Source: an uncultured bacterium (lineage in GTDB: Bacteria; Krumholzibacteriota; Krumholzibacteriia; LZORAL124-64-63). Taken from it: a stretch of 64,000 nucleotides of DNA. The notes under the pieces are model-generated. The model did not search any database and was not told where the DNA came from. It saw only the letters and a program-made list of their open reading frames with translations. Below are positions 5,661 to 44,797 of this stretch, piece after piece (the first letter of the stretch is position 1; each line of letters begins with the position of its first letter). A program made the translations under genes and the position numbers. The stretch is taken from the NCBI GenBank assembly GCA_963727525.1, contig CAVSGO010000007.1, positions 1,920,001-1,984,000 on the forward strand, given 5' to 3'.

Positions 5661-6681
5661 CACCCTCCGGCCGGGGTGGATTCTCACTCGTCGCCACGCC
5701 GGTACCCAGGAGTTGCGGAGGCTCGTTGGTGGTGCGGCGTTCCTTCACCACCACGCTGCCGTCCATGGACTTGCCGTAACGCTTGAGCTCGGCCAGGGTG
5801 TCGCTCAGAGCGGCCTGGTGCGCGAAACGCCCATGCGCGTCGGTGATGAGGGACACGGTGAGCGTGATCAGCGGCACCTGTTCCATCCCGCCTGCGCGGT
5901 TGGTGGCCTCCAGGTAGCCGTTCTCCTGATCGCGCGGATCGTGGAGGCCCGGCACCCGGGCGTCGAAATCGCGGATGATGCGCAACGCTAGCGACTCGGC
6001 GCACTCGCTGTCGCAGGTCATGACGAAGTCGTCGCCACCCACATGGCCGATGAAGACGTTGCGGTCGCGCGCGTCGCGCGCGGCGCTACAGAGCACGTGC
6101 GCCAGCATGGAGATGGCCTGGTCGCCGCGCGAATAGCCATAGTGGTCGTTGAAGCTCTTGAAGCGATCGATATCGAGGTACATGATCGCGAAGGCTTTAC
6201 CGGCATCGATACGCCGCTGGGCCTCGCGGGCGATCGCCAGGTTGCCCGGCAGCCCGGTGAGCGGGTTGGCCTCGCGCTGCGCGCGCACGCTCTCCAGCAT
6301 GTTGTGCATACGCAGCAGCAGTTCTTCCTGATTGAAGGGCTTGGTGACGTAGTCGTTGGCGCCCCCGCGCAGCCCCTCCACCTTCTCGCGGCTGGTGCCC
6401 TTGGCGGTGAGCATGATCACCGGCACGCGGGCCGTTTCCAGGCTGGCCCGGATGCTCCGCAGGACAGAAAATCCATCCATACGTGGCATCATGACATCCA
6501 GGAGCACCAGATCGGGCGAAACGCGATCCAGGGCGTCCAGCGCCTCCTGGCCGTCTGCAGCCATGATGACCCGGTACCCCTCCTGCTCCAGCAAGTACTG
6601 GAGAATACGGCGGATATGTGGTTCGTCGTCGGCCACCAGGATGGTCTCGCGCTCCACCGTCACCTCGGCCTCCTGCGGCAT
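5641..6681 (-). CDS. Response regulator-diguanylate cyclase (REC-GGDEF, GGDDF variant); start ATG 6681 or GTG 6657
   Basis: ILVADDE/LLDVMMP/KPF receiver; NPLTGLPGN, LDIDRFKSFNDHYGYSRGD, GHVGGDDF. Confidence 0.92.
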   Translation of the reverse strand: MPQEAEVTVERETILVADDEPHIRRILQYLLEQEGYRVIMAADGQEALDALDRVSPDLVLLDVMMPRMDGFSVLRSIRASLETARVPVIMLTAKGTSREKVEGLRGGANDYVTKPFNQEELLLRMHNMLESVRAQREANPLTGLPGNLAIAREAQRRIDAGKAFAIMYLDIDRFKSFNDHYGYSRGDQAISMLAHVLCSAARDARDRNVFIGHVGGDDFVMTCDSECAESLALRIIRDFDARVPGLHDPRDQENGYLEATNRAGGMEQVPLITLTVSLITDAHGRFAHQAALSDTLAELKRYGKSMDGSVVVKERRTTNEPPQLLGTGVATSENPPRPEGDDDPHP

Positions 6682-6729
6682 GCAATATGAATGACCAGCG
6701 CCGGTCGAAGGCGCGTTCCCCGGTCGGCA

Positions 6730-6745
6730 AGCAAGGCTCGTGCCC
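6730..6745 (-). promoter_or_regulatory. Putative sigma54 -24/-12 promoter of the c-di-GMP operon
   Basis: Minus strand GGGCACGAGCCTTGCT versus consensus TGGCACG-N4-TTGC, with GG-N10-GC spacing, about 50 bp upstream of the start. Confidence 0.6.
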
Positions 6746-6811
6746 TGCGCGCCCCGGTGAGGCATGTCCAGTCAGGAGGAGAAACATCAAGAAACAGGCG
6801 AGCTTAGACCT

Positions 6812-11683: not shown

Positions 11684-14600
11684 TCAGCGCCAGTCGCCGG
11701 TTCCCACGAACGCGGCCCATAAGAACGGGTGCACACTCCGCCCGCTGGCCCGTCGCTGGGCGAGGATGCGCCGCGACGCCTCTCTCAGGGCGACAGCCGA
11801 GCCGAAGCCGTCCTGGAGCCGTGCGCGGTAGAGTTCGGTCATCCACTCGCGGGTCGCAACATCCTCGACGGGCCACAGGCTCATGATGACGGTGCGGGCG
11901 CCGGCGATCTCGAAGGCGCGTTGCAATCCGAAGACGCCCTCGCCCGGCAGCGTCTCGCCGAGGCCGGTGTCGCAGGCCGAGAGCACGGCCCAGTCGACGC
12001 CGTCGAGGTCGAGCGTCGAGATCTCCTCGGCGGTGACGATGGCGTCCTCCTGGCCGGGCTGTGCCTCGGCTCGGCGGTTGGCCCCGGCCAGCGCCAGGCC
12101 CGCGAGCAGGAGCGGATCGTCGGGGAAGTCGGATGTGCTCGCCTGGCAGTCGCCGGCGAGGAACCAGCCATGGGTCGCGACGTGCAGGAACCGATGGCCG
12201 GGCAACGAATGCTTGAACGCGTCCTCGGTGGCCGCCGCGCCACTGAGCATGGTCACCGGGCCGCTGGCCAGCGCCGCGATCGCCTCGCACTCCTGCCGCG
12301 TGCCCGGCAAGGGCGTGAAGCGATGGGTGACGAAGTCGGCGCAACCGGGAAGCCCCCCGCGCAAAGCTTCGGCTGCCGGATCCGCCGGCGAAGGGTCCAT
12401 GGCGAGGTCGAAGTCCGGATCGCCGACGAGGACCAGGCCGCGTCCGGCCGGCCCCGACACGAGGTCGAGTCCTTTCTCGCGGCTGAGATAATGGATCACG
12501 GGGTCGTGCTCGACGAGGAAGCCACCTTCGGTGTCCGGAAGCGCGGCCAGCGGCAACAGGTGCAGGTCGCCGGACGGCACGACGAAGACGAGCGACGCAT
12601 CCCCCAGGCATGGTGTCAGCGGATCCCAGATCGCGGTCCGGAGCCGGCCGCCCGTCGCCAGGTTGGTCGCCAGCGCCTGCTCCGCCATTGCCGGCACCGG
12701 GACCCGGGCAGCGGCCAGGCCGGCACGCCACCGCGTCACCAGACTGTCGATGGTCGCGGCAGGCCCCAGATCGATGGCACGCTCCCCGGTCGCCGCCAGG
12801 ACGAACCCGCAGTACCAGGGCACCGATTGCGTGCCGCGCACGCGCCCGAAACGCTGGTACGCCACCAGGGTGGCGCCGGTTGGTAGAGCCGCGCGCACAG
12901 CGTCCAGACCCTCGTCGCGCCCGCGCGCGGCGGTCCGGTAGCTGGCGCTACGTGCGGCAAGCGCCGTTTCCGCCTCGCGCTTGCGCAGCTTCGCGTCCTG
13001 GAGCATCTGCGCGAACTGTGTGGGGAGGCGGTCGGACATGCCGCGCACGTAGAGGTCGGCGAGCTGACTGCGCGCGGCATGCACCGCGTCCGCGAGCTCG
13101 CGCGTCGTATCGTCGTCCGCCGATGCGACCGCACGCCGGCGCGACACGAGTTCGTCCAGCACCATGCCGCGCGAACGGATCACGCGATCCCAGACCTTCG
13201 CGACGGCGGCGCGGTCCGGCCCTTGCTCCAGCAACGCGGATATCGCCAGATCGAGCCCCTTCACTCGCGACAGCGCGAATTTCTGCGCGACGTTCTCGCC
13301 AAGCGTCTGCACGACGACGCGAAACTGCTGCGCCGCGAGATCCTCGGTGGTCAGCGCGTCGGTCAGAGCGGCGTCGGCACGCCCCTGGCGCAGACGGATA
13401 CTCGAGCGGTTGGCATGGAGGCTCGCCTCGACCTGCGGATCGATCACGACCGCCGCGCCGTCGAGCGCGCTGTCGAGCAGGGCGGCGGCTGTCCTCAGAT
13501 CGCCGCGGGCGGCGCGGATCGAGGCCAGATCGCTGCGTACCTCGGCCACCCGGTAGTGGTCGTCGCCGACGGCGTCGATCAAGCCGGGCAAGCAGTGTTC
13601 GAGATGCGTGCCGGCGGCGTCGAGGTCGCCGGCCCGGCGCTCGACCATCCCGAGGTACGCCTCCGTGGTCAGGGCGCTCGGGTGATCGGCCCCGAGCGTC
13701 CCGGCGACCAGGCGCAACGATTGCTCGAGGATCTGCCGGGCCTGGACCACCTCGCCGAGGGACTCGTGGGCGATGGCGAGGTTGTTCAGGACGTCGCACT
13801 CCTCCGGGTTCTCGAGACCGTAGGCGGTCTCGTACCCCGCGCGCGCGCGCTCGAAGTATCTGAGCGCCACCTCGTGGTCGCCGAGGCCCTGGGCCACCTG
13901 CCCCAGACCGGTGAGAACGCCGATGACATTGGGCCGCTGGCCCATGTCGTTGGCCTCGTAGATTGCGAGGGCGCGCTGAAAGAGAGGCTCGGCGCCGCGC
14001 AGGTCCCCGAGGGACAGCAGGTTGCTGGCCTGCGACATGCAGGCGAACGCGGTGAGGGGATGGTCGGGTCCGGACACCTTCTCGATGCAGGCGAGCGCCT
14101 TGCTTCCCGCCGCTCGCGACGAGGCGAGGTCGCCGAGGAGGCGGTCGATGTGCGCGAGGTTGGCGTAGGCCGCGCCGACCCTGGCCGTGGTCAACCCATG
14201 GGCCGCCTCCATCGCCGCGGCGACATGCGCAAAGTAAGGTCGGGAATCCGCGAGACGGCCTGCCGACGCCAGCGCGATGGCGAGCACGGCCTCGGCGTCA
14301 TTGATCGCGGTGTCGCCGGGATCGAGCAGCCGCTGCCGGATCGCCAGCGCCTTCTCGCACATGGGGATCGACTCCGCGGCCCGGCCGTCCAGCCGCAGCT
14401 TCGCCGCCCGCGTCATGATGGCGGCGGCTTCGTACAGACCGTCGGGATCGCGCGCCTCGGTGATGGCGAGCGCGCGGCGTGAAAGCTCGTCAGCCGCCGG
14501 TTCACTACCCCGCCCCGCCGCCCCCAGCGCCCGCACGTGACGATCGAGGCAGCGCGCCAGCTCGAGCGAGTCGGGTCCGTACACCCGCGACCAGAGCGCC

Positions 14601-14785
14601 CCCAGCGACTCCGCGGCGGCAACACCGGCGTCGTACTTCCCATCGTGAAAGAGATCGTCGAGCGCCTGCAGGCTGATCGCAACGGAATCGGGCGTGGCCG
14701 GCGCGGCCTCGGCGTGCGCGCACGTCCCCGCGCCGAGCCAGGGCCCGTAGGCGAGGAACGTGATCAGCAGGAACCGGTTGACCAT
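11684..14785 (-). CDS. TPR-repeat CHAT (caspase-like) domain protein, probably exported
   Basis: Signal-like N-terminus ending AHA-EA; about 42-aa kinesin-light-chain-type TPRs (GPDHP, GADHP); intact CHAT dyad HVATHG and VLSACDTG; GARTVIMSLWPV, HPFLWAAF. Confidence 0.9.
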   Translation of the reverse strand: MVNRFLLITFLAYGPWLGAGTCAHAEAAPATPDSVAISLQALDDLFHDGKYDAGVAAAESLGALWSRVYGPDSLELARCLDRHVRALGAAGRGSEPAADELSRRALAITEARDPDGLYEAAAIMTRAAKLRLDGRAAESIPMCEKALAIRQRLLDPGDTAINDAEAVLAIALASAGRLADSRPYFAHVAAAMEAAHGLTTARVGAAYANLAHIDRLLGDLASSRAAGSKALACIEKVSGPDHPLTAFACMSQASNLLSLGDLRGAEPLFQRALAIYEANDMGQRPNVIGVLTGLGQVAQGLGDHEVALRYFERARAGYETAYGLENPEECDVLNNLAIAHESLGEVVQARQILEQSLRLVAGTLGADHPSALTTEAYLGMVERRAGDLDAAGTHLEHCLPGLIDAVGDDHYRVAEVRSDLASIRAARGDLRTAAALLDSALDGAAVVIDPQVEASLHANRSSIRLRQGRADAALTDALTTEDLAAQQFRVVVQTLGENVAQKFALSRVKGLDLAISALLEQGPDRAAVAKVWDRVIRSRGMVLDELVSRRRAVASADDDTTRELADAVHAARSQLADLYVRGMSDRLPTQFAQMLQDAKLRKREAETALAARSASYRTAARGRDEGLDAVRAALPTGATLVAYQRFGRVRGTQSVPWYCGFVLAATGERAIDLGPAATIDSLVTRWRAGLAAARVPVPAMAEQALATNLATGGRLRTAIWDPLTPCLGDASLVFVVPSGDLHLLPLAALPDTEGGFLVEHDPVIHYLSREKGLDLVSGPAGRGLVLVGDPDFDLAMDPSPADPAAEALRGGLPGCADFVTHRFTPLPGTRQECEAIAALASGPVTMLSGAAATEDAFKHSLPGHRFLHVATHGWFLAGDCQASTSDFPDDPLLLAGLALAGANRRAEAQPGQEDAIVTAEEISTLDLDGVDWAVLSACDTGLGETLPGEGVFGLQRAFEIAGARTVIMSLWPVEDVATREWMTELYRARLQDGFGSAVALREASRRILAQRRASGRSVHPFLWAAFVGTGDWR

Positions 14786-15023
14786 GGCGTGCTTCCCTGC
14801 ACCGCGTCTGGTGGCAACGGGCGCTTTGCGGCAAGCTAAGGCCATCGGGGAACGGGCGCCATGCGTGGCGCGTGGACTCGCCGGGATGACGCGCACGGCG
14901 GACGTTGGTCTCGTCGCGCCGAGCGTGCCGGTCAAGGTGAAGACGCGCGGGCCGACACCGAAGCTGTCGCACACGAGCCGGCAGGTGCCGCCGGTCGCGT
15001 GATACGCGAGGCGGCGAACGCAC

Positions 15024-15057
15024 GAGCCCCCGGAGCGCCTTCGCACCCCGGGGGCTC
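15024..15057. terminator. GC-rich hairpin downstream of the M1 peptidase gene
   Basis: GAGCCCCCGG...CCGGGGGCTC, 10-bp perfect inverted repeat. Confidence 0.55.
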
Positions 15058-15074: not shown

Positions 15075-17795
15075 CTACCGCACCAGTACCAGCCCGCGCG
15101 TGTCGATGGTCTTGCCATCCACGCGCAGCCGCGCGAAGTACGTGCCCGAGGCGCAGGGCCGCCCTCCCACATCGGCACCGTTCCAGTGCACCTCGTGCCG
15201 ACCAGCGGCCATACTGCTCTCCGTGAGCACGCGCACGCGGTGGCCCTGGGCGTCGTAGATCGCCAGGTCCACGTCGGCCGCGCGCGGCAGGCTGAAGGGG
15301 ACCACCGTCTGCGGGTTGAAGGGGTTGGGGTAGCACTGTTCGAGGACCGGACGCAGCGGTGGCGCCGCGGCGTCGTGGTCGGGTGTCGCGGTGGCCGGGC
15401 TGTACGGCTCGCCGAAATAGTGATCCAGGATGTAGGCGACATTCTGCGGCAACGCCGTGGCATTCAGCCTGTACGGGCGCCCCACGATGTACGCTAGCCG
15501 TCCACCGTCGGGACGATGCGTGCCGCCGAGCGGCGGCTCGACGATACAACCGGTGCCGCGCTCGCCGCTGAAGCCGCTGGTGTCCTTGAAGAGCAGGGTG
15601 GAGGTCGGACCCACTGCGGTCTGGAAGACGTCGTTGTACGACTGGGCGCCGGTGAAGCTCATGTCCACCAGGCCGGGCGCCACGGCCACGCAGTTGTCAA
15701 GGGTGGCGTCATGTTCGGCCCAGGTCACGCCGAGATAGGTGGACAGCGTCCCGGAGAGGAAGCTGGCGCCGCGCCGGCTCATGAGCAGCACGTTGCCGCC
15801 CGCTGCGAGGTACGACGGGATCGGTGTCTCCTGCCACAGCGGCAAGTCGCCGTTGTAGTCGTTGCCGATCCAGATCACGGCCGAGTACTGACCCAGGACG
15901 CCCGCCGGCACGGCGCCGTGACCGAGGGCCGGCGGCAACGTGGACGGGTAGCCGCCCGACGGCGTGGCAAAGCAATCCCAGAACGAGATCGGCGCGTCGC
16001 CCCAGAAGGCCTGCGCGAGGTAGGCGTTCTGGATCTCCGGGGAGTAGACGTTCCAGTCCACGCCGTTCACCAGCAGGATGCCATGATCGAAGGTGGGGTT
16101 GCTCACCGAGGTGTGCACCTGGCGCAGGATCCAGCGATCAGGGTCGAGTTGCACGTCGCTCACGGTGCCGGCCACGTCGAGCACGTAGCTCTCGCTGGCC
16201 TGGCTGTTCTCCACGCGCAGGTCCACCGTGCCCTGGTCGGTCGTCACGCGCAGCGGGATGGTCATGGTGAACAGGCCGGTGTCGGTCTGCACCTGGTCGA
16301 TGGTGACCGAGATCTGATTCGCGCCAGGTCCGGGATTCCAGGAATACTCGTAGATCGGGAAGTATTCGCCGTAGATCCACTGCTGGAAGAACGCGTCGAG
16401 GTCGCGACCACTGACGGACTCCATCACGTCACGGAACTGCTCGGTCGTGGCGGAACCGTAGCCGTACTGCGCGCGGTACTGCGCGAGGCCGGCGAAGAAG
16501 TCGTCGTCGCCGAGCACGCCGCGCAGCATGTGCACCACCCAGCTCCCCTTGTTGTAGCTGAGGGCGGTGCTGAAGATGTTGTCGTGGTTGACGTCTTCCA
16601 CGATGATCGTGCCGGCGCCGTAGTACGCGGCGGCGTCCATGTACTGCCGGTAGGCGGCCTCGCCCACCGATTGTTCCTTCCAGAACGCCTCGCACCACGT
16701 CGCGAAACCCTCGTTCAGCCAGATGTGCTGGAAGTTGGCGCACGTGATCATGTCGCCCCACCACGAGTGGGCCAGCTCGTGCGAGAGCAGGTCCTCGGAG
16801 TAGCCGCCCAGGCTCGTGCACGTCTGGTGCTCCATGCCGCCGCCCCACACGAACTCGGCCTGGCCGTACTTCTCGTCCACGAAGGGATATTCCCCGAAAC
16901 CATGCGCGTAGGCGGTGATCATGGGCACGACGAGGGCATACGTGCTCTGCACGGCGTCGTAATGATCCGGGTAGACGAAATACTCCACCGGCATCGGGTC
17001 GCCGCCGTCCAGGCGCGGGTACATGTGGGAGAATTGCGTGTAGGGATAGCAGGCGATCGAGACGAGGTAGGTGGCGATGGGATAGTTCGAGTGCCAGTGC
17101 ACGGTGTGCGTCGAACCGTTGTTCACGTCCCCGACCTGCAGCCCCTGGCTGGCGACGACGAGGTTGCTCGGCAGCGTGACACGGACGTCCAGCGAGTCCG
17201 CCTTGTCATCGTTGACGTCCTTGCACGGCCACCAGACGTGTGCGCCGAAAGGTTCACTCAGCGACCAGATCATGGGCTGACCGGCGTGGCTGTCCCAGCC
17301 GAAGAATTCGCCGGCGGGATTGCCGCTGTAGGTGAGCGCCACCGTGACGCTCTCGCCCGTGGCGTAGGCGCGGTCGAGGTCCACGGTCACGAGGTCGGCG
17401 GCGTGGGTCCAGGTGGTCGCCGCGCCGTTCACCGAGGCCGCCGTCACGGCCATGTTGGCCACCAGGTTCAGCTCGAAGGTGCTGATGCTCACGCCCGTCA
17501 CCGTGGCCGTGGTGGTGACGGTACCGCCCAGCGTGCTGTTCGTGGGCGTGAGCGTGAGGTCGAGGTCGTAATGGGTGACGTCGTAGAGCGCCTGATTCGC
17601 GGTGGCCGGCGGTACGGCGAGCATGGCCTTGGCCAGATGTTCCTTCAGCGTCGCCTCGTCCTGGCGGTGCTGCCACAGGGTCTGGCGCAGGGCGTCGGGG
17701 TCATCGGAGGGCGCCGCGAAGGCCGCAGTCGCGGCGACGGCAAGAAGGACGACGAGGACGACACGCGCCCGCAAAGACAAGGCAAAGGTGGTCAT
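15075..17795 (-). CDS. Secreted M1 family aminopeptidase with C-terminal FlgD Ig-like domain
   Basis: Signal peptide; GGGMEH, HELAH..WWGD...WLNEGFA, YNKG; C-terminal CYPNPFNP...WNG.D..G...ASGTYFARL. Confidence 0.93.
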   Translation of the reverse strand: MTTFALSLRARVVLVVLLAVAATAAFAAPSDDPDALRQTLWQHRQDEATLKEHLAKAMLAVPPATANQALYDVTHYDLDLTLTPTNSTLGGTVTTTATVTGVSISTFELNLVANMAVTAASVNGAATTWTHAADLVTVDLDRAYATGESVTVALTYSGNPAGEFFGWDSHAGQPMIWSLSEPFGAHVWWPCKDVNDDKADSLDVRVTLPSNLVVASQGLQVGDVNNGSTHTVHWHSNYPIATYLVSIACYPYTQFSHMYPRLDGGDPMPVEYFVYPDHYDAVQSTYALVVPMITAYAHGFGEYPFVDEKYGQAEFVWGGGMEHQTCTSLGGYSEDLLSHELAHSWWGDMITCANFQHIWLNEGFATWCEAFWKEQSVGEAAYRQYMDAAAYYGAGTIIVEDVNHDNIFSTALSYNKGSWVVHMLRGVLGDDDFFAGLAQYRAQYGYGSATTEQFRDVMESVSGRDLDAFFQQWIYGEYFPIYEYSWNPGPGANQISVTIDQVQTDTGLFTMTIPLRVTTDQGTVDLRVENSQASESYVLDVAGTVSDVQLDPDRWILRQVHTSVSNPTFDHGILLVNGVDWNVYSPEIQNAYLAQAFWGDAPISFWDCFATPSGGYPSTLPPALGHGAVPAGVLGQYSAVIWIGNDYNGDLPLWQETPIPSYLAAGGNVLLMSRRGASFLSGTLSTYLGVTWAEHDATLDNCVAVAPGLVDMSFTGAQSYNDVFQTAVGPTSTLLFKDTSGFSGERGTGCIVEPPLGGTHRPDGGRLAYIVGRPYRLNATALPQNVAYILDHYFGEPYSPATATPDHDAAAPPLRPVLEQCYPNPFNPQTVVPFSLPRAADVDLAIYDAQGHRVRVLTESSMAAGRHEVHWNGADVGGRPCASGTYFARLRVDGKTIDTRGLVLVR

Positions 17796-17868
17796 GGAAG
17801 ACTCCCGAGATCGGTGGCGACGGTGAGACGTGCGGCACGGGCCCGCGGTTGACATGCCTGGCCAGCAG

Positions 17869-17897
17869 ATTGTAGCACAGAATCGCAAATATGACAG
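17869..17897 (-). promoter_or_regulatory. Putative sigma70 promoter of the M1 peptidase gene
   Basis: CTGTCA-N17-TACAAT with extended -10 TG. Confidence 0.5.
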
Positions 17898-18070
17898 GGC
17901 TGAAGTCGGATCCACCGGCGCCAGGAGACCATCGCGCCGTGGTCCGATATTCCATCAATGAACGCACACATTCAGAACCAGGGTCGGTCTCGCGGGAACA
18001 TCGTCGCGCCACGAGGTGTTGGCGCGCACACCGCGATGCAAGATTTCACCATCGACGAACGTGAGAGACC

Positions 18071-18928
18071 ATGCCTCGCCCGTCCCTTCGTGCCCTCGCC
18101 GTGGCCATTGCGGTGGCCGCGGTTGCCGGCGCCGCTCTGGCCGAGCCGCCCCTCACCCACGAGAACCTCGACTGGGCCGCGCCGTGGCGGTGGGTGCATC
18201 TCGACAATGTCGATCCGGCGCAGGCGACGGTCTTCGAGTCGGCGCGCCGCGGCTGGTTGAAGGCTCTCGATCGCGACGATGGGCGGCGCGACGAGGGACT
18301 CCTCGGCGATGGACGACCGCTCTTCTGGAGCGCCCAGGGCGACAGTGTCGATTCCTACCTCACGTTCTATCCATTCCGTACCTGGAGCGACCTCGACGAC
18401 CGCGTCGCCATGGTGCGCCGTACTAACGGCGTCGTGGGTGAGGATGCGGCGGCCGCGTACGACGCCGGCGATGCGGCCCTCGTGCCGCCACATCTCTGGC
18501 AGATCTGGCGGCGGCGTGCGGCGGCCGACATCGTCACCGCCGCCACCGACTCGCTCACCGAGCTGACGGCGAGCCGCGCTCGCGTCGAGCGGCGGCAGGT
18601 CGACTGGGTGCGGTGGGACGACTTCGAGCAATGCTGGGCCGCCGTGCAGGCCGCGCTCGCGGCCCAGGACTATCCGCTGGCTTGCCGTGTCTTCACGAAC
18701 ACGTATGGGGGGCCCCAGGGCGATATGGTGCTCATGTGGCTGGCCCCCGATGTCGCGCACTACCAGGCGGCGCCGACGCTCGCCGACGCGATCGCCCGCC
18801 AGCTCGGGCCCGAAGAGGGCGCCCGGCTCGTTGCCGACCTCGACGCTCTATTTCCCGCCCGCCAGACGTGGGAGATGACGCGGCGCGCCGATCTCTCGAA
18901 CCTCGCAACAAGGAGTGTTTCGCCATGA
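18071..18928 (+). CDS. Exported hypothetical protein (possible tandem NIPSNAP/dimeric alpha-beta barrel-like halves)
   Basis: Signal peptide ending AALA; coding-like codon usage; both halves end in a similar (I/M)xRRRA/RRADLS segment; stop overlaps the tpx start (ATGA). Confidence 0.72.
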   Translation: MPRPSLRALAVAIAVAAVAGAALAEPPLTHENLDWAAPWRWVHLDNVDPAQATVFESARRGWLKALDRDDGRRDEGLLGDGRPLFWSAQGDSVDSYLTFYPFRTWSDLDDRVAMVRRTNGVVGEDAAAAYDAGDAALVPPHLWQIWRRRAAADIVTAATDSLTELTASRARVERRQVDWVRWDDFEQCWAAVQAALAAQDYPLACRVFTNTYGGPQGDMVLMWLAPDVAHYQAAPTLADAIARQLGPEEGARLVADLDALFPARQTWEMTRRADLSNLATRSVSP

Positions 18929-19527
18929 AGATCTCGACTCGCGCGGTCCCGGCCACGGTTGCCCTGGCCCTCGCCGTCGCTCTCGCCCTGCCCGCCCTGG
19001 CCGCCAATCCAGGCTCCGTCACACTCAAGGGCGTGCCCCTGGAGCTGGCCGGTACCGGCGTCGCGATCGGCGATCCGGCGCCGAATTTCACGGCGTTGAA
19101 CGGCTCATTCGAACCCGTCTCGCTCGCAGACTTCAAGGGGAAGACCGTGCTTATCAGCGCGGTGCCGAGCCTGGACACCGAGGTCTGCACGCTGCAGACG
19201 CGCCACTTCAATCAGGCCATCGCCAAGCTGCCCGCGAGCGTGGTCGTCTTGACGATCAGCATGGATCTTCCCTTCGCGCAGCAGCAATTCTGCGGCAAGG
19301 AAGACATCACGTCGATGGTGGTGACGTCCGACTCGGCGCGGCGCGAGTTCGGCAAGGCGTACGGCGTGTATATCCCGTCGCGCGGATTGCTCGCACGGTC
19401 GGTCTTCGTGGTGGGGCCTGAGGGCGTGCTGCGGTATGCGCAGATCGTGCCCGAGCTGACACAGGAACCCGACTACGACGCGGCGCTGGCCGCCGTGCGC
19501 AAGGTGGCGAAGGCGGCTGCGCACTAA
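18925..19527 (+). CDS. tpx: Thiol peroxidase Tpx with N-terminal signal peptide
   Basis: VTLKG, VPSLDTEVC (peroxidatic Cys), ISMDLPFAQQQFCG (resolving Cys), LLARSVFV, EPDYD; AAGGAG RBS. Confidence 0.92.
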   Translation: MKISTRAVPATVALALAVALALPALAANPGSVTLKGVPLELAGTGVAIGDPAPNFTALNGSFEPVSLADFKGKTVLISAVPSLDTEVCTLQTRHFNQAIAKLPASVVVLTISMDLPFAQQQFCGKEDITSMVVTSDSARREFGKAYGVYIPSRGLLARSVFVVGPEGVLRYAQIVPELTQEPDYDAALAAVRKVAKAAAH

Positions 19528-20270
19528 TCGGATTTGTGGAGCAGACCCTCGAGCTTCGATTTCGCAGCGTCGCTCACGTTCTGCCCCGGCGCATTCTTCA
19601 GGAGAGCGCCGAGGCGTCCCTCCAGCTCGCTGTCGAGGGCCATCCCGGCGGCTTTCTGGATGAGGCGCTCCAGCACCTGCTTGCCGATCTCCGCGGACGG
19701 CGCGCCGTCGGGTGCGCCCAGGTCGGTGAGCGTGAAGGCGGGCAGGTCTTGCGAGCGAACCTCGACACCGAGCGCCGAGGCGTCGGCCGTCACCTCGCCG
19801 CCCGTGAACCGTAGCGACCGCACGATCAGCGGCGGTGAGGGCTGATCGGGCTGCGACGTGGGCTTCGCCTCGTCGAGGCGATCGCGGATGATATCGAGGT
19901 TGCGACGGCCGTCCTTGGCGATCTCGTAACGCACTGTGGCGTCGTCCACCGTCAACTCCTGCACCACGTGCGGTTCCTTGCGCAGCGTACCGGTATCGAG
20001 ATCGAGCACCAGCGTGCCCAGGGCCAGGGCATCCTGCCCGGAGAAGCCATCGGGGTTGGCGACGCGCAGGTCGTGGATGGTGACGCTGCCGTGACGGAGC
20101 TTCATCGTCACGCGGCCCACGCTCACCGACGTGCCTGTCAGGCGTGAGCCCTGCGTCTCGATGGCGCTGGCCACGATGCCGTCGAGCTGATTGCGCATGA
20201 AGAGGGCGATACCGGCCACCACGATCACGACGGCGACCACGATGACGATGACGATCCGACTCTTGCGCAT
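19524..20270 (-). CDS. AsmA-like/DUF748-type membrane-anchored protein
   Basis: N-terminal TM anchor; AIETQGSRLTGTSVSVG, LRVANPDGFS pattern; GGGAGG RBS. Confidence 0.7.
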   Translation of the reverse strand: MRKSRIVIVIVVAVVIVVAGIALFMRNQLDGIVASAIETQGSRLTGTSVSVGRVTMKLRHGSVTIHDLRVANPDGFSGQDALALGTLVLDLDTGTLRKEPHVVQELTVDDATVRYEIAKDGRRNLDIIRDRLDEAKPTSQPDQPSPPLIVRSLRFTGGEVTADASALGVEVRSQDLPAFTLTDLGAPDGAPSAEIGKQVLERLIQKAAGMALDSELEGRLGALLKNAPGQNVSDAAKSKLEGLLHKSD

Positions 20271-20372
20271 GCAAGGCCCTCCCGATTGGTGTTCTTCCGC
20301 CGCTCCCAGCCGCGGCCCCCACTCCCAAGGAAGGCGCGCCGGGGCGATCCGGCCAATCATCGCAATTCCGGA

Positions 20373-20401
20373 TTGACGGGGAGCGGATCCCGGGGCATGA
20401 T
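20373..20401 (+). promoter_or_regulatory. Putative sigma70 promoter of the Cys-rich peptide gene
   Basis: TTGACG-N17-CATGAT, about 40 bp upstream of the ATG. Confidence 0.6.
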
Positions 20402-20440
20402 CCAGGAGGTTCCCCATCTTCAATCCAGGGAGGTCGATCG

Positions 20441-20665
20441 ATGCGTAAGGGTCTTTCCATTCTCCTGCTGGTCTTCGTGTTCACGATGGGCGTGGCGATC
20501 GGGGTCGACACCCAATCGGCCCAGGCCATCGGTGGCGGCGGATTCTGCTACTGGACCTGCGGCTGCAACGGCGTGCCGATCCGCTGCTGCTTCACGCCGC
20601 TCGGCGTGATCTGCTCCCCGGACCCGAACGGGCCGGTGCAGTGCCCGCAGATCGCCGACTGCTGA
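20441..20665 (+). CDS. Small secreted cysteine-rich peptide (74 aa; 8 Cys in the mature part)
   Basis: GGGAGG RBS, signal peptide ending AQA, GC3-rich codons; mature IGGGGFCYWTCGCNGVPIRCCFTPLGVICSPDPNGPVQCPQIADC. Confidence 0.85.
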   Translation: MRKGLSILLLVFVFTMGVAIGVDTQSAQAIGGGGFCYWTCGCNGVPIRCCFTPLGVICSPDPNGPVQCPQIADC

Positions 20666-20736
20666 GCGATCTCCCACCTTGACGTTGACGCGCGCGGGCG
20701 GACCATCCGCCCTCGCCACGAGGTTGCGAACGCACG

Positions 20737-21300
20737 ATGGCGCGCAGAATCCTGAAGGGGCTGGGCTGGCTCGTCCTGGTGGCCGCCGTGGGTGCTGCGG
20801 GTCTGTTCGTGGGCACACAGGTGCGTACGCGTATCGCGCCGCGTCCGCAGACGTTTCGCGCCGAGGACGTGCTCGACCACGACCTGCCGCAGGATGGCGA
20901 TTTCCCCGACGTGACCGTGATCGATGCCGATGGTGAGCCACGTCGGTGCCGCGATCTCGTGGCTGGCGGAACCGTCGTGCTCTTCCTCGATCTCGAATGT
21001 TCCCCCTGCACCGACATGGCCCGCCGCTGGCAGGATGCTCTCGGCCGAGGCGTGATCGCGCCGGCGCAACTATGGGCCATCACCGTCTATCCCCGCGACG
21101 CCATCACGGCGTACCAGGACGACAACGGCTTCACGTTTCCCATCTACGAGGACCGCGACCAGGTCTTCCGCCACGACTACGGCGTGAAGCAGTACCCCCT
21201 GGAGGTCACCGTGGGCGCATCGGGCAAGATCCGCCGCACCACGTTCGACTCGGTCACCCCCATCGATCCCCACGCTCTCGCCGCACGCCTCGCACGCTGA
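20737..21300 (+). CDS. Membrane-anchored thioredoxin-fold redoxin (TlpA/AhpC-TSA-like)
   Basis: N-terminal TM; FPDVTVIDADG, CSPC (CXXC), FTFPIYED, YGVKQYP (cis-Pro position). Confidence 0.85.
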   Translation: MARRILKGLGWLVLVAAVGAAGLFVGTQVRTRIAPRPQTFRAEDVLDHDLPQDGDFPDVTVIDADGEPRRCRDLVAGGTVVLFLDLECSPCTDMARRWQDALGRGVIAPAQLWAITVYPRDAITAYQDDNGFTFPIYEDRDQVFRHDYGVKQYPLEVTVGASGKIRRTTFDSVTPIDPHALAARLAR

Positions 21301-21316
21301 GACCCGCCACGTCCAT

Positions 21317-21346
21317 TTGCCTCGCCGGTACCCGATCGGGTATACT
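21317..21346 (+). promoter_or_regulatory. Putative sigma70 promoter of the BNR-repeat gene
   Basis: TTGCCT-N18-TATACT. Confidence 0.5.
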
Positions 21347-21386
21347 CGTGCGTCGGCCCCGCTTCCCCCACCTGTGAGGTTGTCGC

Positions 21387-24020
21387 ATGTCGTCCCGCTG
21401 GTTCCGCCTCGCGCTGCCGCTCGTCGCTGCCGTCGTCCTCGTCGCCGTGCTCGTGCCGCGCCTGCGCGAGGCCTGGGAGCCCTGGGAACCGCCCACGTTC
21501 GAGGAGAGCGACGCGGTCTCACGCGAGCCGGGCGATGGGCTGCCACCGCGCACGCCGAACCCCTGGTTCTACACGGAGCGCGCGTATCCGCTGGGGCACA
21601 TCGACCTCGCCAACTGGCACCGTGCACAGCTCCAGGCCACGGCGCTGCGGGCCGAGGCGGCCGCCAAGGGCGACCGCACGGCCTGGGAGTTGCGCGGCCC
21701 CACCAACATCGGCGGACGCATCACCGACATTGCCGTGGATCCGCGTAGCCCCCAGGTGGCGTTCGCGGGCGCGGCCGAGGGCGGCGTGCTGCGCACGCGC
21801 GATGGCGGTCAGTCGTGGACCCCGCTCCTCGACGACCAGGCGGCCCTCTCCGTCGGCGCGGTGTGCCTCGACCCCCAGGACCCCGACGTCGTGTACGCGG
21901 GCACGGGCGAGGTGAACCCCGGCGGTGGCAGCGTGGCCTACGGTGGCGTGGGCGTGCTGCGTTCGCTCGACGGCGGCGACTCGTGGCAGCCGCTGGGTCT
22001 CGAGAACGCTGGCTCGATCGGTCGGCTGGTGGTCGACCCCACCGATAGTCAGCGCATCTTCGCGGCCGTCATGGGCCACCTCTGGCTCCCCGGCCCGGAT
22101 CGTGGCGTGTATCGCACCACCGACGGCGGCAGCACCTGGCAGCAGGTGCTGTACGTCGATGACACCACCGGCGCCGTCGATATCATCGTGCGGCCTGACG
22201 ATCCGCAGGTGATCCTTGCCGCCATGTGGCAACGCATCCGTACGCCCGAGCTCTACGACTACGGCGGCCCCGGCTGCGCGGTATGGCGCTCGGATGATGG
22301 CGGCGACACCTGGCAGATCGTGGGCGGCGGCCTGCCCACGCCGGGCACGGATTCCGGACGCATCGGGCTGACACTGTGCGCCGCGCAACCCGACCGCATG
22401 TACGCCGTGTACGCCGATCGCACCGGTTATTTTGCAGGCCTTTACCGCAGCAACGACGGCGGCGCCACCTGGACCCGCACCAGCGACGGCGCGCTGAGCA
22501 GCGTCTTCGCGAGCTACGGCTGGTGGTTCGGCAACGTGCGTTGCCACCCGACGGATCCCAACACCGTGTTCGTGCTCGGCCTCGACTTCTTCCGCACGAC
22601 CAACGGCGGCTCATCGTGGAGCGAGGTGTCGGATGGCATGCACGTCGACCATCACGCCCTCGCCTTCAGCACCGGCCTCACCCCGGTGATCTACGAGGGT
22701 AACGACGGCGGCCTCTACCGTTCGAACAACGGCGGCTCCGCGTGGGCCATGCTGCCCGACCAGCCGATCACGCAGGTCTACCGCCTCGCCCTCGACGCGC
22801 AGAACCCCGACGCGCTCTACCTCGGCGGTCAGGACATCAGCACGGTGCGCACGCTCACCGGCGCCCTCGACGACTGGAGCACCATCTTCGGCGGCGACGG
22901 CTTCCAGCCGCTGGTGCATCGGCTGAACGGCGACCGGATCTGGGCGCAGTTCCAGTACGGTTCGGTCTACTACTCGTCCAACGGGGGGCAGTCGTTCTCG
23001 TACGCTGGCAGTGGCATCAGCGGCAGCGATCGCGTCGCGTGGAACGCCCCGCACGTCCAGGACCCCACCGACACCGAACGGCGCTACTTCGGCACCAGCA
23101 GGCTCTACCGCAACAGCGGCAACACGAGCTGGACGGCGATCAGCGGCGACCTCACGGGCGGCCCGCACCACGGTCAGAGCGGCCAGGTGGACGGCACGCT
23201 CACGGCGATCGGCGTCTCGCCCATCGACGGCCAGGTGATCTGGACCGGCAGCGACGACGGCCGCGTGCACGTCACCACGAGCGGCGGCGGCACCTGGACC
23301 GACGTCTCCGCCGGCCTGCCCGATCGCTGGGTCACGAGCGTCCACAGCGATCCGTTCGTGCGCGAGACGGCCTATGTCACCGTGAGCGGGTTCCGCTGGA
23401 ACGAGCCGCTGCCCCACGTCTACCGTACCACGGACCTGGGCGCGACCTGGCAACCCATCGCCGGCAATCTGCCCGAGGCGCCGACCAACGATCTGCTCCC
23501 GTCGCCCGAGCTGGCGAACCGGCTATACGTGGCCACGGACGTGGGCGTGTACGAGACCCACGACGGCGGCACCACCTGGCAGGTGGCGGGTAGCGGCCTG
23601 CCACGCGTCGTGGTGACCGAGCTCGACTGGTCGGCGGCACGGCACGAGATCGTGGCCTCCACCTTTGGCCGCAGCGCCTGGAGCCTGCCCGTGTCGGGCG
23701 CCACGGCCGTGGGCGATGACATCGCTGTCGGCCATGGCGGTGCGCTCGGCCGCGTACTGGCGCCGTTCCCGAATCCAGCCTCCGATGGCACACGCATCCA
23801 GTGGGAGCTGGCGTCCTCCCGCCCGGTGACGGTGGACGTCATCACCGTGGCCGGGCGCCGTGTGCGCACCCTGCGGACCGATGCGGCCGCCGGCCGAGGT
23901 GGCCTCGACTGGGACGGACACGACGACGGCGGCCACCCCGTGGCGTCCGGGGTGTACCTGCTTCGCGTTTTGAGCGACGGTGAGGCGGTGGGTACCCGCA
24001 CGGTCGTTCTGCGACGTTGA
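21387..24020 (+). CDS. BNR/Asp-box (VPS10/GH74-like) beta-propeller protein with C-terminal FlgD Ig-like domain
   Basis: Many S/T-x-D/N-G-G-x-T/S-W repeats, GPTNIGGRI; C-terminal PFPNP...WDGHDDGGHPVASGVYLLR. Confidence 0.88.
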   Translation: MSSRWFRLALPLVAAVVLVAVLVPRLREAWEPWEPPTFEESDAVSREPGDGLPPRTPNPWFYTERAYPLGHIDLANWHRAQLQATALRAEAAAKGDRTAWELRGPTNIGGRITDIAVDPRSPQVAFAGAAEGGVLRTRDGGQSWTPLLDDQAALSVGAVCLDPQDPDVVYAGTGEVNPGGGSVAYGGVGVLRSLDGGDSWQPLGLENAGSIGRLVVDPTDSQRIFAAVMGHLWLPGPDRGVYRTTDGGSTWQQVLYVDDTTGAVDIIVRPDDPQVILAAMWQRIRTPELYDYGGPGCAVWRSDDGGDTWQIVGGGLPTPGTDSGRIGLTLCAAQPDRMYAVYADRTGYFAGLYRSNDGGATWTRTSDGALSSVFASYGWWFGNVRCHPTDPNTVFVLGLDFFRTTNGGSSWSEVSDGMHVDHHALAFSTGLTPVIYEGNDGGLYRSNNGGSAWAMLPDQPITQVYRLALDAQNPDALYLGGQDISTVRTLTGALDDWSTIFGGDGFQPLVHRLNGDRIWAQFQYGSVYYSSNGGQSFSYAGSGISGSDRVAWNAPHVQDPTDTERRYFGTSRLYRNSGNTSWTAISGDLTGGPHHGQSGQVDGTLTAIGVSPIDGQVIWTGSDDGRVHVTTSGGGTWTDVSAGLPDRWVTSVHSDPFVRETAYVTVSGFRWNEPLPHVYRTTDLGATWQPIAGNLPEAPTNDLLPSPELANRLYVATDVGVYETHDGGTTWQVAGSGLPRVVVTELDWSAARHEIVASTFGRSAWSLPVSGATAVGDDIAVGHGGALGRVLAPFPNPASDGTRIQWELASSRPVTVDVITVAGRRVRTLRTDAAAGRGGLDWDGHDDGGHPVASGVYLLRVLSDGEAVGTRTVVLRR

Positions 24021-34352: not shown

Positions 34353-36212
34353 TCATAACCGTCGCGGTTTCACCATCGCCTCCGGCGCCAGCAAGCGGTC
34401 CAGCTCATCCCGCGAGAGCAGCCCCTTCTCCAGCACCAGTTCGTACACGCCGCGCCCCGTGGCCAGAGCCTCGCGCGCCAGATCGGTGCTGCGATCGTAG
34501 CCGAGCACCGGATTGAGCGCCGTCACCAGCCCGATGCTGTGCTCCACGTACTCGCGGCAACGGGCCACGTTGGCGGTGATGCCATCCACGCAGCGCAGAC
34601 GCAGCGTCGCCATGCCGTTCTTGAGCATCTCGATCGACTCGAGCAGGCTCTGGCCGATCACCGGCTCCATGACGTTCAGCTCGAGCTGCCCAGCCTCGGC
34701 TGCCATGGTCACCGTGAGGTCGTTGCCGATGACCTTGAAGGCGATCTGATTCACCACCTCGGGAATCACGGGATTCACCTTGCCGGGCATGATCGACGAT
34801 CCCGGCTGCATGCGTGGCAGCACGATCTCGCCCAGCCCGGCACGCGGGCCGCTGGAGAGCAGCCGCAGGTCGTTGCAGATCTTCGAGAGCTTGATCGCCA
34901 GCCGCTTGATCGCCGACGATACCATGACGAACGCGCCCGTATCCTGGGTGGCCTCCACCAGGTTGTGGGCCAGGCGCAGGTCCAGTCCCGTGAGGTCGCG
35001 CAGATGCTCCACCGCACGCGCGCCGAACTCGGGATCGGCGTTGATGCCCGTGCCGATCGCCGTGCCGCCCAGGTTCACCTCGAGGAAAAGCGCCGCGTTC
35101 TGACCGAGCCGGTCGATTTCCTCGCCCAGCGTGACGCCGTAGGCCTCGAACTCCTGGCCCAGCGTCATGGGTACCGCATCCTGGAGCTGGGTGCGCCCCA
35201 TCTTGAGCACGTCGGCGAACTCGCGGCCCTTGGCCTGGAACGCGGCCACGAGATCGTGCAGCACGTCGGTGAGTCCGCGCACGGCGTAGACCAGCGCGAT
35301 CTTCAACGCCGTGGGATAGGCGTCGTTGGTCGACTGCGCCAGGTTCACGTGGTTGTTGGGATGACAGTACTCGTACTCGCCCTTGGCATGGCCGAGCAGC
35401 TCCAGGGCACGGTTGGCGATGACCTCGTTGGCGTTCATGTTGGTCGACGTACCCGCACCGCCCTGCACCATGTCCACCACGAAATGCCCATGCCACTTGC
35501 CCTGGATGATCTCGCGGCAGGCGGCCACGATGGCGTCGGCCACGGGCCGGGGCAGGTGGCCCAGCTCGGCGTTCGCCTGTGCGGCCGCCAGCTTGACGAT
35601 GGCCAGCGCCTCGATCAGGACCGGGAAGTGACCGAGGGGAATGCCGCTGATCGGGAAGTTCTCCGTGGCTCGCAGGGTCTGGATACCGAAGTACGCCTCG
35701 TCCGGTACGTCGCGATCGCCGATGAGATCATGCTCGTGCCGCGTGCGACCGCTCGCATACTGGGCACCGGCGCGCGCCACCCGCACGGAGTCCTGGCGCA
35801 GGCGCCGCGAAATCACTCGCGTGATGCGGGCCAGGATGCGGGCCCCGAGCCGCGGATGCTCGGTCGCCAGGTCCTGGAAGGCATCGCGGCTCAGCCGTAG
35901 GACGTCGCAATCGCTGAGCGCACGGCCCGACGCACCGTGAGGATAGTCGTCGAGCAATGCTCCCTCGCCCAGAAAAGCGCCGGCGCCGAAGAATGCCAGC
36001 CGCTGCTCGCCCCCGAACGGCGTGGCTCCGAACACCTCCACCTCGCCGGACACGATGATGTGCAGGTTCACGCGCGGCTCGTGCTCGCCGAACAGCAACT
36101 CACCGGCCGGCACACGCCTGGTATCCAGTCGCGCGGCGACGAGCGCGCGCTCGCCAGCGTCGAGATCGGCGAAGAGTTCGATCGCGGCCAGGACGTCGTC
36201 GATCGGCTGCAT
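34353..36212 (-). CDS. aspA: Aspartate ammonia-lyase with N-terminal cyclic-nucleotide-binding domain
   Basis: N-terminal LFADL...IIVSGEVEV...FLGEGALL..PHGASGRA (cNMP fold); then YFGIQTLRATENF, GGAGTSTNMNANEV, KMGRTQLQDA, GSSIMPGKVNPV. Confidence 0.93.
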   Translation of the reverse strand: MQPIDDVLAAIELFADLDAGERALVAARLDTRRVPAGELLFGEHEPRVNLHIIVSGEVEVFGATPFGGEQRLAFFGAGAFLGEGALLDDYPHGASGRALSDCDVLRLSRDAFQDLATEHPRLGARILARITRVISRRLRQDSVRVARAGAQYASGRTRHEHDLIGDRDVPDEAYFGIQTLRATENFPISGIPLGHFPVLIEALAIVKLAAAQANAELGHLPRPVADAIVAACREIIQGKWHGHFVVDMVQGGAGTSTNMNANEVIANRALELLGHAKGEYEYCHPNNHVNLAQSTNDAYPTALKIALVYAVRGLTDVLHDLVAAFQAKGREFADVLKMGRTQLQDAVPMTLGQEFEAYGVTLGEEIDRLGQNAALFLEVNLGGTAIGTGINADPEFGARAVEHLRDLTGLDLRLAHNLVEATQDTGAFVMVSSAIKRLAIKLSKICNDLRLLSSGPRAGLGEIVLPRMQPGSSIMPGKVNPVIPEVVNQIAFKVIGNDLTVTMAAEAGQLELNVMEPVIGQSLLESIEMLKNGMATLRLRCVDGITANVARCREYVEHSIGLVTALNPVLGYDRSTDLAREALATGRGVYELVLEKGLLSRDELDRLLAPEAMVKPRRL

Positions 36213-36310
36213 ACCAGACTCCCAGGACAGGTCATCTGCCGCGGACGACCGGGAGGGCGTCCACACTCGTGCGGGATTCAAACTCGCTCAACGGTCCGCG
36301 ACCGGCAACC

Positions 36311-44076: not shown

Positions 44077-44098
44077 GTTTCGACCTCGGCGCCCGCGA

Positions 44099-44797
44099 TC
44101 ACGGGCTCGTCAGGGCGTACATCAGGACATTGACGGCCATCCTGGCGGCTTGCTCGCGTACCTGCGGCGGATCGCCGTGGACGTCGGGATCCTCGAGTCC
44201 GTCACCGATGTCGCTGGACCAGGAATAGAAGATGACCAGCCGGCCGTCCTTGCTAACACCGAATCCCTGGGCAGGATCCCCGTCATGTTCGTGGATCTTC
44301 GGTAGCCCCGGCAGATCATAGAACGCGTGATAGATCGGATGGGCACTGCTGAGCGGTTCGAGCTTCAGGTCCGGGTAGAGCTGCGCGACCATCTCCCGGA
44401 AAGACGTGTTCAACCCGTAGTTGTCGTCGGCCCAGAGGAGACCGCCGGCGTCGAGATAGCGGCGCAGCTCGGCCAGCTCCGTGTCGCTCAGCGCGATGCG
44501 CCCGTGGCCTGTGATGTAGATCAGCGGGTAACGGTAGAGGTCCTCGCTGTCCAGGGTGACCACCGCCTCGGTGGACGCCGTGGGCAGGCCCGTGCGCTCG
44601 CGGAAATCGCGCAACCAGTTGGGCATGCTGCTGGGATTGCTGTACCAGTCGCCACCCCCGCTGTAGTGCCAGCGCGCCACGCGTAGCCCCGCGTCGGTGT
44701 CCTCGACCGGTCGTGCCGCGATCGCACCCGCGATCAGCACGCTGGCTGACAGCGCGAGACTCAGGACGATGGTTCGGGATCGGAAGGCTCGTGCCAT
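44099..44797 (-). CDS. DUF4159 domain protein (exported)
   Basis: YSGGGDWY, YITGHG, GGLLWADDNYGL, GLPKIHEHDG, DIGDGLED; AGGAG RBS. Confidence 0.88.
   Translation of the reverse strand: MARAFRSRTIVLSLALSASVLIAGAIAARPVEDTDAGLRVARWHYSGGGDWYSNPSSMPNWLRDFRERTGLPTASTEAVVTLDSEDLYRYPLIYITGHGRIALSDTELAELRRYLDAGGLLWADDNYGLNTSFREMVAQLYPDLKLEPLSSAHPIYHAFYDLPGLPKIHEHDGDPAQGFGVSKDGRLVIFYSWSSDIGDGLEDPDVHGDPPQVREQAARMAVNVLMYALTSP

Follow-up and report, generated by a model that had tools for sequence, protein, structure and literature searches.

A conserved gene pair encoding an eight-cysteine mini-protein and a TlpA/ResA-like redoxin: a candidate exported peptide with its own folding enzyme

Positions 20373..21300 of a 64,000-nucleotide stretch of contig CAVSGO010000007.1 (approximately 2.4 Mb) from an uncultured member of the Krumholzibacteriota carry a gene for a very small cysteine-rich protein, followed directly by a gene for a protein with a thioredoxin fold (hereafter the redoxin). 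The whole stretch is referred to below as the window. The question raised by this locus is whether the two genes form a unit and, if so, what the enzyme does to the peptide. The explanation that we consider best, and to which we assign roughly even chances, is that the locus encodes a Sec-exported mini-protein with four disulfides together with a private thiol-disulfide oxidoreductase. In such a self-contained two-gene operon, the first gene would yield a 74-amino acid precursor that is exported by the Sec machinery, with signal peptidase probably cutting after an AQA sequence. The 45-amino acid product would fold as a small three-stranded β-sheet domain held by its eight cysteines. The second gene would provide a TlpA/ResA/StoA-type enzyme that is anchored in the cytoplasmic membrane and exposes its CSPC active site to the periplasm, where it would act directly on the cysteines of the peptide as a private folding catalyst. 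By opening wrong disulfides, the redoxin might lead the peptide to a single native pairing out of the 105 that are possible.

The 74-amino acid open reading frame (ORF) is a real, constrained gene. It goes beyond what chance would produce because homologues exist and because the ratio of nonsynonymous to synonymous substitution rates is 0.18–0.59 in all 15 pairs that can be formed from the window gene and five intact relatives. The peptide gene and the redoxin gene also constitute a conserved two-gene unit. Related loci were collected by scanning genome contigs with a 10-member alignment, which reaches only the closer part of the family. Eight loci were returned, of which two were dropped because the match is a chance one in another reading frame (L007, labelled Kaiserbacteria, and L008, labelled Flavobacteriales). 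In all six true loci (L001–L006), a redoxin homologue is located directly 3′ of the peptide gene. These loci come from metagenome-assembled genomes (MAGs) labelled Krumholzibacteria, Latescibacteria, and Gemmatimonadota. The redoxin homologues are 32–50% identical to that of the window and start 75–95 nucleotides past the peptide gene, although the one in L002 is cut by the contig end after a part that aligns to residues 56–139.

The genes that flank the pair are otherwise different. Common flanking genes occur only within L001/L003 and within L004/L006, never with the window, and the peptide and redoxin families are the only ones common to all contexts. Pfam matches in the flanks include a pyridoxal phosphate-dependent decarboxylase and a TPR repeat-containing Ser/Thr kinase in L001, Ni-SOD in L002, a histidine kinase and an ATPase of the type II secretion system type in L004, AsnA in L005, and DUF748/AsmA and a BNR/sortilin-like protein in the window. 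No gene for a transporter, an immunity protein, or a peptide-modifying enzyme, including those for peptides that are made by ribosomes and modified after translation (RiPPs), was seen in the five distinct contexts. Since no such gene recurs, the conserved unit is the pair itself. This outcome agrees with the two-gene system that had been proposed for the locus by an earlier reading of the window letters alone (hereafter the original prediction).

The linkage can also be followed through the sizes of the two families. Profile searches yield 62 clusters for the peptide family, a number close to the 60 clusters of the redoxin subfamily (defined at E ≤ 1e-10). Ten longest-contig values match between the two cluster tables, comprising that of the window itself, one of approximately 1 kb that may be a chance agreement, and eight further pairs. 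In addition, the pairwise identities of the two genes correlate, with r = 0.80 over 10 non-independent pairs.

The features of the cassette, in window coordinates, are as follows.

20373..20401, + strand: candidate sigma-70-like promoter, TTGACG-17 nucleotides-CATGAT, with 9 of 12 matches
20428..20433, + strand: ribosome-binding site (RBS) GGGAGG, 7 nucleotides ahead of the ATG
20441..20665, + strand: gene for the 8-Cys mini-protein precursor of 74 amino acids, stop codon included
20441..20527, + strand: predicted Sec-type signal peptide, residues 1–29, with the putative cut after AQA
20528..20662, + strand: mature domain of 45 amino acids with 8 Cys and a C-terminal Cys, predicted to form a three-stranded antiparallel sheet
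20692..20716, + strand: intergenic GC-rich stem-loop (core 20696-20712) without a T-run
20737..21300, + strand: gene for the TlpA/ResA-like thiol-disulfide oxidoreductase of 187 amino acids, predicted to be membrane-anchored
20758..20814, + strand: N-terminal hydrophobic membrane anchor of the redoxin, residues 8–26
20998..21009, + strand: active-site CSPC of the redoxin, residues 88–91
21196..21198, + strand: codon for Pro154 of the redoxin, at the cis-proline-loop position of thioredoxin folds (presumed cis)

The ORF, promoter-like site, RBS, hairpin, and CSPC redoxin of the original prediction are all located where it had placed them.

The precursor begins with the residues MRK, followed by a hydrophobic stretch and the AQA sequence, which is the arrangement of a Sec signal peptide. 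Of the secretion named in the original prediction, this N terminus supports the step of Sec export. Among the 72 pooled members of the family, every one has an A/V/S/G-x-A motif upstream of the first cysteine, and AlphaFold predicts a helix that spans precursor residues 3–21. The mature part has the cysteine spacing C-x3-C-x-C-x6-CC-x7-C-x9-C-x5-C, in which the last residue of the protein is a cysteine. It is found in 28 of the 72 members, more often than any other spacing. Exactly eight cysteines are present in the last 48 amino acids of 70 of the 72 members, with the other two carrying seven, and the terminal cysteine is present in 71. In an alignment of 68 members (A7), all eight cysteines are invariant and the glutamine of the C-terminal CPQ motif is nearly so. 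This alignment omits P0013, P0016, P0028, and P0069, which have N- or C-terminal extensions or missing cysteines. Homologues with conserved cysteine number and spacing, which the original prediction had offered as a check, therefore do exist.

A word-indexed search gave three relatives besides the window's own protein, whereas an exhaustive search of 50% representatives gave 26 matches at E ≤ 0.001, of which 22 are small proteins. The other four are long proteins (P0017, P0021, P0025, and P0027) whose scores are sums of weak repeat matches, and these were dropped from the family counts. The members are called 'hypothetical' in the source databases and, where a source is named, it is a MAG labelled Krumholzibacteria, Latescibacteria, Gemmatimonadota, or Zixibacteria. 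Scans of Pfam and NCBIfam yielded no model for the family, which is in keeping with the failure of the original prediction to recognize it; the 68 aligned members together gave one stray match per library. A MatE match of the window peptide (0.0053) falls on the signal peptide and is not real. When a four-member profile was searched against PDB sequences, only matches with E > 1 were obtained, to hydrogenase small subunits. The ESM Atlas offers weak leads (0.82, 0.80, and 0.78) to unnamed clusters of approximately 66–71 amino acids that occur most often in Acidobacteriota, and none to a named cluster. Neither the peptide gene nor the redoxin gene has a further copy in the window or in the related loci.

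AlphaFold models the full precursor with a predicted local distance difference test (pLDDT) value of 73.2. For the mature part, modelled with 68 alignment rows, pLDDT is 79.8 and the predicted TM-score is 0.54, and the model is a three-stranded antiparallel sheet formed by mature residues 7–11, 17–23, and 26–31. The eight cysteines most likely form four disulfides, as suggested by their strictly even, invariant number. The core from the first cysteine to the C terminus is 35–45 amino acids long, consists of 20.8% cysteine, and contains a median of four aromatic residues, with histidine making up only 7 of 2757 residues in the family. Core net charge ranges from −3 to +3 and lies between −1 and +2 in 56 of the 72 members, indicating that the peptides are not cationic. 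In size, cysteine content, small predicted β-sheet core, and Sec-type export, the family is reminiscent of the knottins and defensins of eukaryotes. However, the defensin- or knottin-like character proposed earlier was not borne out. Foldseek returned no match at E ≤ 0.001 for the full-length or mature model against PDB (best E 2.7–2.8) or for the mature model against BFVD, and neither knottins nor defensins appear among the best matches listed, in a size class of disulfide-rich folds that is hard for this method. Beyond the lack of a fold match and of cationic character, no sequence relation to these eukaryotic peptides was found.

The 187-amino acid redoxin matches the Pfam family AhpC-TSA (1.7e-11, 44.6 bits versus a cut-off of 26). 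All six redoxins in an alignment of the family (A5) have an N-terminal anchor, an FP motif, the sequence DL(E/Q)-C-x-P-C, and Pro154, and the residues C88, P90, C91, and P154 are invariant. As a single sequence, the window redoxin gave no PDB match at 1e-3, whereas a six-member profile matches ResA (4nmu, 9.8e-8; 1st9) and StoA (3erw, 2.4e-6), and also Etrx (2yp6 and 4hqz) and a Neisseria thioredoxin-like protein (2l5o). Pro154 of the redoxin aligns with the loop proline of ResA. Every one of the 60 members of the redoxin subfamily has exactly one CXXC motif, most often CPPC (41 members), followed by CSPC and CPAC (five each), CEPC (three), and CEGC (two), with CTPC, CHGC, CDGC, and CPSC occurring once each. 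Proline is present at the third position of this motif in 50 of the 60. By a crude count, 58 of the 60 also have an N-terminal hydrophobic stretch, which is consistent with a membrane-anchored topology.

Two more specific names were considered for this enzyme and rejected. Relatives are named peroxiredoxin by JGI, yet the site reads DLE-C-S-P-C, in which the residue three places ahead of the cysteine is neither Thr nor Ser. Peroxiredoxins carry their peroxidatic cysteine in a PxxxT/SxxC motif. An assignment to ResA proper fails because the window redoxin scores 22.8 bits with the ResA model NF002854, far under the cut-off of 170, and because there are no cytochrome maturation genes in any context. 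In NCBIfam scans of the six redoxins at E ≤ 0.01, sub-threshold matches to ResA (three of six) and StoA (one of six) were obtained, and none to the PedC-type family. As judged from these matches, the redoxin is a distinct branch of the TlpA/ResA/StoA-like reductant family that lies outside any named subfamily.

The likeness to ResA, StoA, TlpA, and Etrx extends to the thioredoxin fold, the N-terminal anchor, the C-x-P-C motif, and the cis-proline loop, and these proteins are the best matches among solved structures. The motifs of ResA (CEPC) and StoA (CPPC) both occur in the redoxin subfamily. These two enzymes have redox potentials of −256 mV and −248 mV, respectively, both reductive, and known members of this type each serve one or a few specific substrates (PMC2665060). 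Unlike for ResA and StoA, there are no genes for cytochrome c maturation, sporulation, or copper oxidases nearby in the window or in the flanks of the related loci. Also unlike ResA, StoA, TlpA, and Etrx, the linked candidate substrate is a peptide of 41–45 amino acids with eight cysteines.

To examine contact between the two proteins, complexes were predicted from redoxin residues 40–187 (with a 6-row alignment) and mature peptide residues 30–74 (with a 25-row alignment). Three runs scored 0.63, 0.66, and 0.00, giving a median of 0.63, and the best control reached 0.18. Of 157 solved complexes, 116 reach that mark, as do 2 of 215 mismatched pairs; this calibration is rough for the present case, for which we supplied the alignments. 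At least 1% of contacts are common to the runs, and partner pLDDT is at least 60. On the redoxin side, the predicted interface comprises residues 85–91, which include CSPC, residues 151–154 of the cis-proline loop, and residues 169–173. This is the canonical substrate site of thioredoxin folds. On the peptide side, it comprises residues 39–42, 47, 49, 52, 54–60, and 71–74, with five of the eight cysteines (Cys40, Cys42, Cys49, Cys58, and Cys74) among them. The complex model supports binding of the peptide at the CSPC/cis-proline site.

The original prediction had proposed a folding catalyst comparable to that for sublancin. The idea that the enzyme acts on the peptide is strengthened by the complex model, which puts the peptide on the CXXC motif. 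A likeness to the sublancin enzyme is not supported, because the nearest relatives are the extracytoplasmic reductants ResA, StoA, and Etrx and there is no PedC-type match, and the catalytic direction therefore leans to reduction or isomerization. Within our preferred explanation, reductive proofreading or isomerization is somewhat favoured over de novo oxidation because of the C-x-P-C motif and because the nearest relatives are reductants. The working principle, by analogy, may be that of a reduced CXXC enzyme that reshuffles wrong disulfides, as for DsbC and HP0377. DsbC is reported to help small disulfide-rich proteins strongly in E. coli (PMC3668227), and HP0377 of Helicobacter pylori, which belongs to the CcmG family, is reported to be both a reductase and an isomerase (PMC5909903). 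DsbC, however, is a soluble dimer of broad specificity, whereas the redoxin is the size of a monomer, is predicted to be membrane-anchored, and is linked to one peptide gene. With regard to the task of the peptide, our guess is that it serves within the cell envelope as a rigid inhibitor or binder, given its lack of cationic character and the absence of immunity and export genes from the cassette.

A promoter scan of positions 20100-21500 of the window, the only sequence to which the scanner was applied, found two sigma-70-like sites versus 0.2 expected from shuffled sequences. By eye, TTGAC(G/A) is present upstream of the peptide gene in five of six aligned sequences (the window, L001, L002, L003, and L005, but not L004). 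All six upstream regions carry a purine-rich stretch resembling a Shine-Dalgarno sequence ahead of the start codon, consisting of GGAGG or, in L002, GGGAGG. A GC-rich hairpin is located at the same position between the two genes in the window and in L001–L006, which in the window has a 7-bp stem (GGGCGGA-CCA-TCCGCCC). When the strongest 45-nucleotide hairpin of each spacer was compared with those of random segments from the same locus, the hairpins of L001–L005 ranked in the top 0–4%, with 3 of 149, 6 of 145, 0 of 146, 3 of 150, and 2 of 142 controls, respectively, being at least as strong. A terminator scan of positions 20100-21500 found no terminators, and a T-run follows the hairpin in L002 only. 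The stem-loop is probably a partial terminator or a transcript-stabilizing element that gives a high ratio of peptide to enzyme. By limiting read-through or by stabilizing a short transcript, it would cause more substrate than catalyst to be made. Lantibiotic operons are said to carry such an element 3′ of the structural gene.

Several observations weigh against the explanation of an exported mini-protein with a private folding catalyst. The hairpin of the window is within chance for GC-rich DNA (fold z = −0.34, with 19 of 148 same-locus controls as strong), and that of L006 is unexceptional (14 of 147). Moreover, no consensus RNA structure was obtained for the six spacers, since MAFFT leaves the hairpins out of register and RNAalifold predicts 0 pairs. 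Because the spacers lack an alignable common structure, conservation of the hairpin is claimed for its position only. The CXXC motif does not point uniformly to a reductive role, as 10 of the 60 subfamily members (those with CPAC, CEGC, CHGC, CDGC, or CPSC) do not have proline at the third CXXC position. The 51 long ORFs scanned in the window, which covers 64 kb of the contig, include no redox partner of the DsbB or VKOR type and none of the CcdA/DsbD type, which keeps TlpA/ResA-like enzymes reduced at their low redox potential. The seven contexts examined are all from related lineages. The passing complex score may partly reflect the general manner in which thioredoxin folds hold substrates in solved complexes, and there is the one run of 0.00. 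Lastly, the peptide gene in L006 (5880-6130 of DASTOO010000212.1) is decayed, with no start codon or signal peptide and with its stop codon lost. It retains the ending ..PIGCPQIADC, and the redoxin ORF downstream of it is intact. This peptide gene is either a pseudogene or an assembly error, and unless it is the latter, the enzyme can persist without an intact peptide. The state of L006 and the failed run, together with the finding that 7 of 44 blindly picked neighbours passed in a test of the prediction method, would suit a situation in which the two genes are mere neighbours, with the redoxin serving other substrates and the peptide folding by general machinery. We judge this to be unlikely, as it has to contend with adjacency at six of six loci despite different flanks, with families of 62 versus 60 clusters whose longest contigs match, and with docking at the active site where controls do not exceed 0.18. 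A still smaller chance is given to an antioxidant relay in the envelope, in which the peptide would act as a thiol buffer, either sacrificial or shuttling, with the redoxin recycling it. Antioxidant genes do stand beside the cassette in two of approximately five contexts (Tpx-like in the window and Ni-SOD in L002), but neighbours are not conserved between contexts and this support amounts to two coincidences. Relatives of the Etrx type serve in oxidative-stress repair (PMC3914529). The rigid spacing of eight cysteines and a folded sheet are unnecessary for a buffer.

The strongest competitor, which we nevertheless consider improbable, is that the peptide is a released antimicrobial or signal in the manner of sublancin or pediocin, and that the redoxin is an oxidase that adds four disulfides de novo. 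Gene linkage and predicted docking at the CXXC motif suit an oxidase as well as a reductase, and some thioredoxin-like extracytoplasmic proteins are oxidants, such as SdbA of Streptococcus gordonii and DsbE of Mycobacterium tuberculosis. The bacteriocin-linked oxidoreductases BdbA (and BdbB) for sublancin, BlpG for thermophilin, and putatively PedC for pediocin provide a genuine parallel in that the gene for a small exported disulfide-containing peptide adjoins that for a CXXC protein resembling thioredoxin, which is required or proposed for the correct disulfides of the peptide (PMC4919988). However, those systems occur in Firmicutes, have two disulfides and double-glycine or other leaders, and encode immunity proteins and ABC transporters within the cluster. 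The present loci have a Sec signal, eight cysteines, and no other conserved gene in MAGs labelled with the four phyla named above, and no ABC exporter with immunity gene, as is typical of PedC/BrcD-type clusters, was found in the window or in the flanks of L001–L005. Immunity and export genes are absent from every context examined, the core is near-neutral, and none of the six redoxins matches the PedC-type family at E ≤ 0.01. In addition, Sec export from a probably diderm cell would end in the periplasm, and a reductive role is indicated both by the C-x-P-C motifs and by ResA and StoA as the closest relatives. A RiPP precursor was also rejected, because the leader is a Sec-type signal with AxA and the flanks hold no RiPP enzymes. 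Less probable than a bacteriocin-like system, though slightly ahead of mere adjacency, is a periplasmic thiolate metal binder for Cu(I), Zn, or Cd whose eight cysteines are kept reduced by the redoxin in the manner of TlpA. The peptide has CxC and CC motifs, which are typical of metallothioneins, proteins that otherwise have few aromatic residues and little regular structure, and the relatives of the enzyme are reductants. TlpA itself offers a precedent with copper-site proteins, as it reduces ScoI and CoxB before copper insertion. Against such a role stand the confident β-sheet prediction, the aromatic residues and near absence of histidine in the core, and a strictly even, invariant number of cysteines that suits disulfides better. 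There is also no conserved metal-handling gene in the neighbourhood.

Should the enzyme be a dedicated isomerase, the pair could aid the production of disulfide-rich peptides. Animals, plants, and fungi are familiar sources of multi-disulfide mini-proteins, which in bacteria are rare and poorly charted. The present locus adds an unnamed bacterial family of approximately 70 sequence clusters with eight invariant cysteines, no recognizable fold relative, and a linked candidate folding enzyme. For the TlpA/ResA family, in which each member is tuned to its own client, it also represents a new kind of candidate substrate. Both the peptide family and its pairing with the redoxin appear to be undescribed so far; no description of either was found in the literature that was searched, from which subscription journals were excluded. 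More tentatively, these genes might be the founding example of an undescribed class found in candidate phyla around Krumholzibacteria and Zixibacteria, in which genetically encoded mini-proteins with four disulfides and a distinct fold are each produced along with a TlpA-like disulfide isomerase that is private to them and bound to the membrane. In that case, a foldase dedicated to one substrate would be the way in which these bacteria arrive at one of the 105 pairings, and the two genes could be used as a compact system for producing stable peptides and as a new scaffold for them.

The surroundings of the cassette include several other genes of note. The region is flanked by an M1 peptidase (15075-17915, −) and the BNR/sortilin-like protein (21387-24020, +), which share a C-terminal domain of the FlgD_ig type with approximately 39% identity over 85 amino acids. 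A tail of this type is also present at L003 8030-9220, and it is probably a sorting or anchoring tail that is typical of the lineage. The Tpx-like redoxin, which has a signal-like N terminus, is encoded at 18925-19527 (+) of the window, and Ni-SOD at 5199-5681 (−) of L002. The presence of antioxidant neighbours in these two unrelated contexts may be a coincidence. A 285-amino acid ORF (18071-18928, +) also has a signal-like N terminus, has no Pfam match, and is not conserved beside the cassette elsewhere.

Farther away in the window, a 1120-amino acid protein (11684-15046, −) combines TPR repeats with a CHAT protease domain at its C terminus. A fusion of a histidine kinase and HD_5 (3249-5687, −) adjoins a GGDEF response regulator (5641-6765, −), and the two look like a cyclic di-GMP signalling pair. 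Adjacent genes for DUF4175 (a 1234-amino acid ORF) and DUF4159 proteins at 40372-45541 (−) are located upstream of a 1608-amino acid HAMP histidine kinase (44761-49587). Finally, a 642-amino acid ORF (34353-36281, −) carries a cyclic-nucleotide-binding domain (residues 55–141) ahead of a class II fumarase/aspartase, with Lyase_1 at residues 190–519 and FumaraseC_C at residues 585–638. Provided that the upstream start is real, such a fusion would be unusual.

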